Origin: Eledone cirrhosa
Taxonomy: Eukaryota
Assembly: GCA_964016885.1 (NCBI GenBank)
Contig: OZ024741.1
Location: 215,760,001 to 215,824,000 of the forward strand
Direction of reading: 5' to 3'
DNA: 64,000 nt
The translations under genes were made by a program, and so were the position numbers. The notes beneath the pieces were generated by a model. It saw only the letters and a list, made by a program, of their open reading frames with translations. It made no database searches and had not been told where the DNA came from. Positions 36,261 to 37,531 of this stretch are shown in pieces; position 1 is the stretch's first letter, and each line of letters opens with the position of its first letter.

Positions 36261-36395
36261 GGTATTTTCTTCGTGGTTATAAGGGGCTTAGCTCTGTTTC
36301 TCGACCGTTATATCGCGTGACTATCTCCCCCTCCGCCTTTTGGGATTCTTTCGCACGTCGTGTAGACGCGTTCTTGAGACTAGTAAAATGAGGTA

Positions 36396-36483
36396 TCCTC
36401 TTGATAAGTCGGCAGACCTCGCAAGGACTCTATATCTTTGATATATTGTTTTTGTTTATGCCACGAAACTACGTAGTCGAGGA
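36396..36483 (+). ncRNA. Type I hammerhead, U3-A8 core variant, extended stem II
   Basis: UCCUC-UUGAUAA-GUcGGCA...UGCCAC-GAAA-CUacguAG-UC/GAGGA. Confidence 0.8.
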
Positions 36484-36986
36484 ATTTAGGAACAGTTTAG
36501 GTATGATACATTTTATTACTAATTATATCTAAATGTTTCTTCTCTCTTCATAATGTATTTTTAACTCTGATACTGGTTCAGTCTAGTTCAAACTGAATTG
36601 GTCTGTCCCAGTCATTCATTGAGCAACATCGGTGAAGTTGGCACCCTTAACTCACAGTTGGGTGCGGATGCATTCATGTATATATGTGTGTGTCCGCATG
36701 TATCTGTGTGTTTCTAAATATATTAATAACTCCCTCTGGTCGAGCAATCTTTGAAGTGTGGGGACAACTGGAAAGCTTCCATTACTCATACTTCTCGCCT
36801 TCTTCACTACCTCTTCTACGGCCTCGATATGAATACCCCCTCCGCCTCCGTGGTATTTTCTTCGTGGTTATAAGAGGCTTAGCTCTGTTTCTCGACCGTT
36901 ATATCGCGTGACTATCTCCCCCTCCGCCTTTTGGGATTCTTTCTCACGTCGTGTAGACGCGTTCTTGAGACTAGTAAAATGAAGTA

Positions 36987-37074
36987 TCCTCTTGATAAGT
37001 CGGCAGACCTCGCAAGGACTCTATATCTTTGATATATTGTTTTTGTTTATGCCACGAAACTACGTAGTCGAGGA
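36987..37074 (+). ncRNA. Type I hammerhead, U3-A8 core variant (second copy)
   Basis: Identical to 36396-36483. Confidence 0.8.
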
Positions 37075-37531
37075 ATTTAGGAACAGTTTAGGTATGATAC
37101 ATTTTATTACTAATTATATCTAAATGTTTCTTCTCTCTTCATAATATATTTTTAACTCTGATACTGGTTCAGTCTAGTTCAAACTGATTTGGTCTGTCCC
37201 AGTCATTCATTGAGCAACATCGGTGAAGTGGGCACCCTTAACTCACAGTTGGGTGCGGATGCATTCATGTATATATGTGTGTGTCCGCATGTATCTGTGT
37301 GTTTCTAAATATATATATATATATATATATATATATATATATATATATATATATATATATATATATATATATATATATATATATATATATATATATATAT
37401 ATATATATATATATATATATGTATATATATATATATATATATATATATATATATATATATATATATATATATATACAACTAAACACACCTATCTATTTCA
37501 ATAATAGTATGTATGTATACATACATATATA

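Follow-up and report, generated by a model that had tools for sequence, protein, structure and literature searches.

A young, high-copy repeat family with a U3-A8 hammerhead in Eledone cirrhosa: a likely non-LTR retrozyme whose predicted circular RNA would be copied into (TA)n by a Penelope-like enzyme

In Eledone cirrhosa, a stretch of 64,000 nucleotides (contig OZ024741.1, positions 215,760,001 to 215,824,000; hereafter the window) contains a tandem repeat that carries a hammerhead motif in each unit and directly adjoins a fragment of a Penelope-like element (PLE), which raises the question of whether the repeat is a retrozyme or the pseudo-LTR (pLTR) of its neighbour, as a preliminary description of the locus had proposed and considered, respectively. 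The repeat has the period of 591 that had been described and starts at 36260, although the second unit is partial, so that the array amounts to 1.8 units. Unit 1 (36260..36850, plus strand, 591 nt) begins at the 5' truncation point of the array, 36260, and is non-coding as judged from its translations, while unit 2 (36851..37314, plus strand, unit positions 1-464) differs from it at 6 of the 464 overlapping bases and terminates at the second of two fixed 3' ends of the family, in a (TA)n run. This run is the target microsatellite (37309..37475), and a short 5'-truncated copy of the same family (19309..19480, plus strand, unit 295-466) is likewise flanked by TA runs.

In a motif scan of the whole window, both units were found to contain TCCTC-TTGATAA-(57 nt stem II)-GAAA-CTACGTAG-TC^GAGGA, the arrangement that had been reported for them (UCCUC-UUGAUAA...GUC/GAGGA), with cores at 36401 and 36992. 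The first type I hammerhead (36396..36483, plus strand) has the perfect stem I previously described, with five Watson-Crick pairs between 36396-36400 and 36479-36483, a UUGAUAA core at 36401-36407, an extended stem II and a stem III that is indeed palindromic (ACUACGUAGU); the second (36987..37074, plus strand, core at 36992) has the same sequence. Cleavage is predicted after 36478 and after 37069, in agreement with the earlier prediction. All features of a type I hammerhead are present, namely stems I-III, boxes 3-9, GAAA, A15.1-U16.1, G10.1-C11.1 and a UH cleavage site, with U-A as the Watson-Crick pair between positions 3 and 8. That such a hammerhead would be missed by standard searches was borne out by Rfam scans of the window, which returned low-complexity matches only and no hammerhead even at E 10.

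The active hammerhead fold is predicted to be 3.7 kcal/mol less stable than the minimum-energy fold, and two copies could pair through their stem III palindromes in a duplex of -12.9 kcal/mol. A 6-bp pseudoknot (36389..36421, plus strand) is also predicted, between UGAGGU 5' of stem I (36389-36394) and ACCUCG in the internal loop of stem II (36416-36421); in 12 natural copies 93% of its cells are predicted to pair, and unit 2 has one mismatch within it (36983). For the proposed ribozyme helices including this possible pseudoknot, 95.4% of cells pair in the 12 natural copies, drawn from 23 clusters, where covariation support is weak, being reached by 17 of 500 shuffles. The GAGG that precedes stem I (36389-36400) has two possible partners, loop 2, which gives the pseudoknot, and the 5' side of stem I, which gives an inhibitory hairpin; these alternatives could form a folding switch.

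The preliminary description took the double change of C3 and G8 as a sign of selection. When the flanking sequence is kept constant, U occupies position 3 at 6,055 places genome-wide (A8 in 99 of the first 100 matches listed) and another base at 12, all of which have A8 and none of which is C3-G8, so that U3-A8 is the family state and the copies are not decay products of a CUGAUGA consensus, a possibility that had been raised. With no C3-G8 relative found in the family, the change is not visible as within-family covariation, and the claim is to that extent weaker than stated. Relatives whose stem II is short were also sought, and the 3 matches are all deletion variants. That U3-A8 is a functional natural variant, as had been stated, agrees with the literature and is hence not new, since such cores occur in natural hammerheads and are active in vitro according to the relevant text of PMC3088659, and have been described in Schistosoma PLE hammerheads in that of PMC4209133. 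The window family shares with the Schistosoma mansoni Cercyon PLE hammerheads (PMC4209133) and other U3-A8 cores (PMC3088659) the same core covariation and a palindromic stem III suited to dimers. In the passages available, those hammerheads form a heterogeneous group of mostly single minimal motifs with about 1,300 matches (PMC4209133, PMC3088659), whereas the window family has a single motif, nearly invariant and non-minimal, that stands in tandem arrays and exceeds 6,000 copies. In one mutational scan the 3-8 pair was rescued by a G-C swap only (PMC9901934, in the part consulted), and 8 of 9 predicted Xenopus retrozymes are reported without cleavage in vitro (bioRxiv 10.64898/2026.07.22.740005, same restriction). 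On balance, the ribozyme of the window family is quite likely to be active.

The repeat belongs to a large family. The 24-nt 3' half of the ribozyme has 7,444 exact matches in the genome and its reversed control has 0, so the motif is not due to chance, and a DNA search with the unit gave 611 candidates, of which the 40 that were scored yielded 176 matches, mostly 99% identical and tandem. Natural monomers running from ribozyme to ribozyme (99 found, 35 distinct) measure 580-595 nt and are 75-100% identical; the 75% subfamily aligns end to end with core and stem III kept, and a unit length of about 590 nt is thus held over 25% divergence. The predicted released monomer or circle of 591 nt (36479..37069, plus strand) has a predicted circular fold of -172.1 kcal/mol, compared with -131.3 +/- 6.6 in 40 dinucleotide shuffles (z -6.2). 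The family is dispersed and high-copy, shows signs of retrotransposition and has a hammerhead in at least two consecutive units, as expected of a retrozyme. A plant LTR retrozyme, in which type III hammerheads lie in LTRs around a unique core, is ruled out by the type I topology and the whole-unit tandem, and an intron following the ribozyme (GTATGA...AG) was discarded as a possibility, since the 75% subfamily does not retain its acceptor. No RNA run was listed among the sequencing runs that contain unit words; in six runs of unknown kind, under three organism labels, 74-84% of these words are present; contigs from two of these runs include single records of 620-621 nt, the length expected of a 591-nt cycle, but tandem DNA yields the same length and the records therefore permit no inference on circles.

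The manner of insertion is recorded at the ends of the copies. Their 5' ends are variable, and their 3' ends in (TA)n are fixed at two places, unit 299 and unit 464, which lie 165 nt apart. In the window, the first (36550..36558, plus strand) lies 80 nt past the cleavage site, shows AT microhomology to the target and is read through, while the second (36716..36723, plus strand) lies 245 nt past the cleavage site and was used by the insertion at 37314; genome-wide, 2,570 unit-299 ends into (TA)n were counted. Two-armed insertions carry one end on each arm, with 84 of 87 across two sets pairing a 299 end with a 464 end. The first set, in which overlapping loci were merged by coordinate, comprises 102 distinct arrays, 55 of them two-armed; 53 of these are paired, in the remaining two one end is incomplete or deleted, and none has two equal ends. 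The second set consists of 60 further loci chosen solely for the 299 end, of which 59 were parsed, and here the 464 end was found on the other arm in 31 of 32 two-armed cases, the remaining case being interrupted. In the 75% subfamily the ends lie 81 and 247 from the cleavage site, that is, at the same distances, and by hand count 15 of 17 complete cases are paired and 2 have two long ends.

These features resemble those described for PLEs. In the sections of PMC11167929 that bear on this, the protein of the anole Poseidon PLE PAc, a predicted dimer, cuts both strands of AT-rich DNA in vitro and begins reverse transcription 3' of the hammerhead, at two internal sites, and in those of PMC8557442, PLE insertions commonly have an inverted copy, with a tail at one end only. 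The window family is alike in its two internal start sites 3' of the hammerhead, its AT-rich targets, its tandem and inverted 5'-truncated copies and its single-end tail. It differs from the PLEs of these two sources in having no ORF, in a tail of 165 nt as opposed to their 30-40, and in reaching up to about 7 units per arm; moreover, there is AT microhomology to the target at both start sites, whereas PAc starts without homology (PMC11167929). We infer that the unit 299 and unit 464 ends are reverse-transcription start sites and that two enzymes act on one RNA, one for each DNA end, which would also explain the single-end tail known from PLEs. The element is very probably non-autonomous and mobilised by a PLE.

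Whether the template had been cleaved can be approached through the 5' ends. In the first set, which is biased toward intact ribozymes, 277 segments span the predicted cleavage site and 4 ends fall within 10 bases of it; in the second set 118 segments span it, and 2 of 91 arm ends lie exactly there. Among 26 loci with TA-joined 5' ends, counted from six bases upstream up to the site, the end falls precisely on the site in 9, one of which has a 2-base filler; in 11 it lies in a TA microhomology 4-5 nt before the site, and in 6 elsewhere. The 9 of 26 give a p of 0.008 against an even spread over the seven positions, and of 0.001 against the three positions free of microhomology, which were picked after the fact. 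A wider search for 5' ends pointed in the same direction, with no dominant pile-up among the first 100 of 486 matches listed. These counts are a weak sign that some templates may have begun at the cut.

A further record is kept in the sequence variants, which were called against the commonest letter per column within an age group, so that their direction rests on column majorities. A variant was termed array-wide when present in every unit, usually of both arms, and single-unit when present in one unit; the former must have been in the template already or have arisen through later homogenisation, while the latter arose during copying or afterwards. On the ribozyme strand, A>G accounts for 29 of 84 array-wide and 11 of 225 single-unit distinct variants in the first set (Fisher p 1.4e-10), and C>T, a control equally tolerated by pairing, is not enriched (p 0.25). 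In the same set, a G 5' of the changed A is depleted (2/29 vs 28/134, p 0.04), which matches the preference of ADAR, for which a G 5' of the edited A is disfavoured; the pairing probability of changed A's does not differ from that of other A's (p 0.52). The second set, for which variants were counted in 44 of the 59 arrays (15 were too divergent or too short), shows A>G in 19 of 51 array-wide and 2 of 72 single-unit variants (p 5e-7), and in 8 of 29 against 2 of 72 when only variants confined to one array are considered (p 6e-4), with a weaker bias than in the first set among the 5' neighbours (T8 C5 A4 G2). The two sets have many of their A>G sites in common and so are not fully independent.

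In one array, L142, all units of both arms share clustered A>G changes, and a 27-mer with three of these changes has 7 matches genome-wide, which belong to the 7 units of that insertion and lie on both arms. The simplest reading is that one edited monomer, i.e. a circle, was read repeatedly; against it, the assembly could lack the source locus. Variants shared by only some units number 7, in 4 of 60 larger arrays, the other 56 being without any, and in array L138 the same ordered pattern of unit variants is found on both arms. These cases indicate that multimer templates or later conversion also occur, either of which fits L138 better than a single circle does. Changes counted for the young branch (A>G 12, T>C 9, G>A 8) give no clear sign of a long-term A-to-G ratchet between subfamilies. 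A-to-I editing is the probable source of the A-to-G excess, and the variants suggest that A-to-I-edited circles may be copied by rolling-circle reverse transcription.

The window tandem is an insertion of a young, high-copy, non-coding U3-A8 family. This family is likely a non-LTR retrozyme, whose predicted self-cleaved, circular and likely edited RNA would be copied into (TA)n by a PLE reverse transcriptase-endonuclease. In such a system, tandem transcripts would cleave at GUC^, either as a monomer or through a dimer held by the 10-bp stem III, and the 591-nt monomer would be ligated by a host ligase. A PLE protein would cut both strands of the (TA)n, each DNA end would prime at one of the two internal sites on the same RNA, each enzyme would circle this RNA for up to about 7 turns, and the 5' ends of the two cDNAs would be joined; each ADAR edit on the circle would turn up as a fixed G in every unit. 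That a monomeric circle is the usual template appears somewhat probable. The fuller proposal, in which arrays record one ADAR-edited 591-nt circle read by two reverse transcriptases from two start sites, with the edits seen in all units inherited and editing a main source of variation, is tentative and stands slightly short of an even chance.

Other templates and routes have to be weighed against this. The same element could be inserted in the PLE manner from a long, uncleaved tandem transcript, with a ribozyme that is slow or dispensable and with the unit order of the source array copied, which would account for the fact that most copies span the cleavage site and for the identical order of unit variants on both arms of L138, and would agree with the anole PLE, whose insertion in vitro is independent of hammerhead cleavage (PMC11167929, as far as its accessible text goes). 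However, editing of a linear multimer should vary by unit, in contrast to the L142 cluster, which all units of that insertion share and the rest of the assembly lacks; the absence of partly shared variants from most larger arrays and a core unchanged across 75%-identical subfamilies also speak against an uncleaved template, which is unlikely but deserves some weight. At the DNA level, single units or short arrays could insert and then expand and homogenise by slippage, unequal exchange and conversion between arms. Inverted arms can convert each other, and neighbouring units have variants in common in L140, L021 and L154, both of which would favour such expansion. It has also been proposed for retrozyme arrays (bioRxiv 10.64898/2026.07.22.740005, in the portion seen). 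But variants arising at the DNA level, i.e. those of single units, are almost never A>G while array-wide ones often are, and the arrays retain precise, RNA-defined ends as well as 129 single-unit differences, so that expansion of this kind is very unlikely to have made them.

The remaining alternative is that the unit is the pLTR of a coding PLE, either one that is rare in or missing from the assembly or the adjacent GIY-YIG element. The unit does show all hallmarks of PLE insertion, and the GIY-YIG fragment does abut the array in the opposite orientation, as had been described. This fragment is the GIY-YIG end and 3' UTR of an older, unrelated Hydra-type PLE (PLE-A, 35304..36258, minus strand, continuing at 34534-33977 and ending in (TA)n), its own sequence stopping at 36258. 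Its linker has the CxCX5C pattern described for the Hydra clade (PMC8557442 section 11, the part consulted). Matches to PLE-A in the atlas carry HTH_animal, RVT_1 and GIY-YIG. Nested in its 3' UTR lies a second unrelated fragment (PLE-B, 34535..35303, minus strand), which we take to be Neptune-like from its linker and for which Pfam gives a weak GIY-YIG match only; PLE-B is abundant but decayed, as seen in the 150 scored of 33,464 candidates. All three elements target TA runs, which is why the array adjoins PLEs.

Against a pLTR of PLE-A, 28 of 29 other PLE-A loci, 83-94% identical to the window copy, reach 36258 and run on toward the reverse transcriptase in their own sequence, and the unit is there in none; the window copy moreover has its own canonical CUGAUGA hammerhead (core at 34070, minus strand). 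As PLE-A is unrelated and equipped with its own ribozyme, the 591-nt unit is not its pLTR, and the inverted pLTR envisaged in the preliminary description is not supported. Long copies of PLE-B and the unit share no homology, nor was pLTR homology to a coding family found among the profile-scan matches listed (window and loci L001-L135). As to whether the unit occurs alone or attached to PLE reading frames, a same-strand frame upstream was found in 0 of 161 flanked arrays with Hydra- and Neptune-type protein queries; these are 161 of some thousands of arrays and two types of query, which leaves a rare partner some room. A head-to-head frame was found in 2 of the 161, the window array and L265, and a third in an older subfamily at L111, and as the three junctions involve three different PLE families, no partner PLE emerges. 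Together with a unit length of about 590 nt kept over 25% divergence, this makes the pLTR reading very unlikely. The retrozyme-like reading gains from the tandem arrays at thousands of loci and the absence of an upstream same-orientation PLE frame in the 161 arrays, and the preliminary interpretation is, overall, partly supported.

Several observations were made on neighbouring and related repeats. PLE-B has two fixed 3' ends of its own, about 55 nt apart, one on each arm in the window copy, an observation that also draws on L208, and one copy has a 791-aa open frame (G000:C4:241651400-241653700). At L265:2375-3530, a Hydra-type PLE lies head to head with a young array, and between them is a 20-nt stretch of the unit, inverted and similar to sequence of the PLE itself, possibly a template switch or chance. 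A second tandem family, unrelated to the first, is non-coding, measures about 470 nt and has a canonical CUGAUGA hammerhead (L210:6196-7128; G000:C6, about 43469200-43470100); it is two-armed and lies in TA runs, with related matches in L165, L058, L171, L068 and others; it is probably another retrozyme family. The window has additional canonical type I hammerheads at 9628 (plus), 49138 (plus) and 34070 (minus), in which stem III is palindromic and which belong to other PLE-type families. A 48-bp satellite (57184-64000, 142 copies, 95% match) extends past the window end, and a near-perfect fold-back of about 40 bp at 27130-27219, which recurs in other loci, e.g. L104, looks like the inverted-arm junction of another repeat.

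The element and its U3-A8 core are of known kinds, and by its sequence the family fits a metazoan non-LTR retrozyme. In common with the metazoan non-LTR retrozymes in the text available of PMC7229834 and bioRxiv 10.64898/2026.07.22.740005, it is a non-coding tandem in which each unit has one type I hammerhead, with a GC content below 50%, thousands of copies, a strongly self-paired predicted circle and coexisting PLEs, and 591 nt lies within the 51-972 bp range given for retrozymes in the latter, though it is longer than the tested invertebrate circles of 170-400 nt (both sources). It differs in its U3-A8 core, which standard descriptors miss, and in a 57-nt stem II with a predicted pseudoknot, while those portions of the two sources contain no description, for retrozymes, of (TA)n targeting, the two fixed ends, the arm rule or the A-to-G signature. 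Metazoan retrozyme circles have been shown experimentally (PMC7229834; bioRxiv 10.64898/2026.07.22.740005, relevant passages), whereas the window family is known from DNA sequence. In the same passages, how animal retrozymes move is a matter of proposals, with circles as the suggested templates and PLEs as the suggested partners. Titles and abstract starts in the literature gave no description of the family, the arm rule or the edit barcodes, a matter on which the supplementary family lists of PMC4209133, PMC7229834 and PMC8557442 could bear; within this scope, the one-end-per-arm rule with its 165-nt tail and the A-to-G barcodes are new.

The family also illustrates that large retrozyme families can escape CUGANGA and Rfam searches. 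It is young and abundant enough for its insertions to serve as single-molecule records, and edit barcodes present in all units provide a direct test of a circular template, by which the proposed rolling-circle step becomes testable. If the A-to-G excess is due to ADAR editing, RNA edits would have been fixed in the germ-line genome via a mobile circle.
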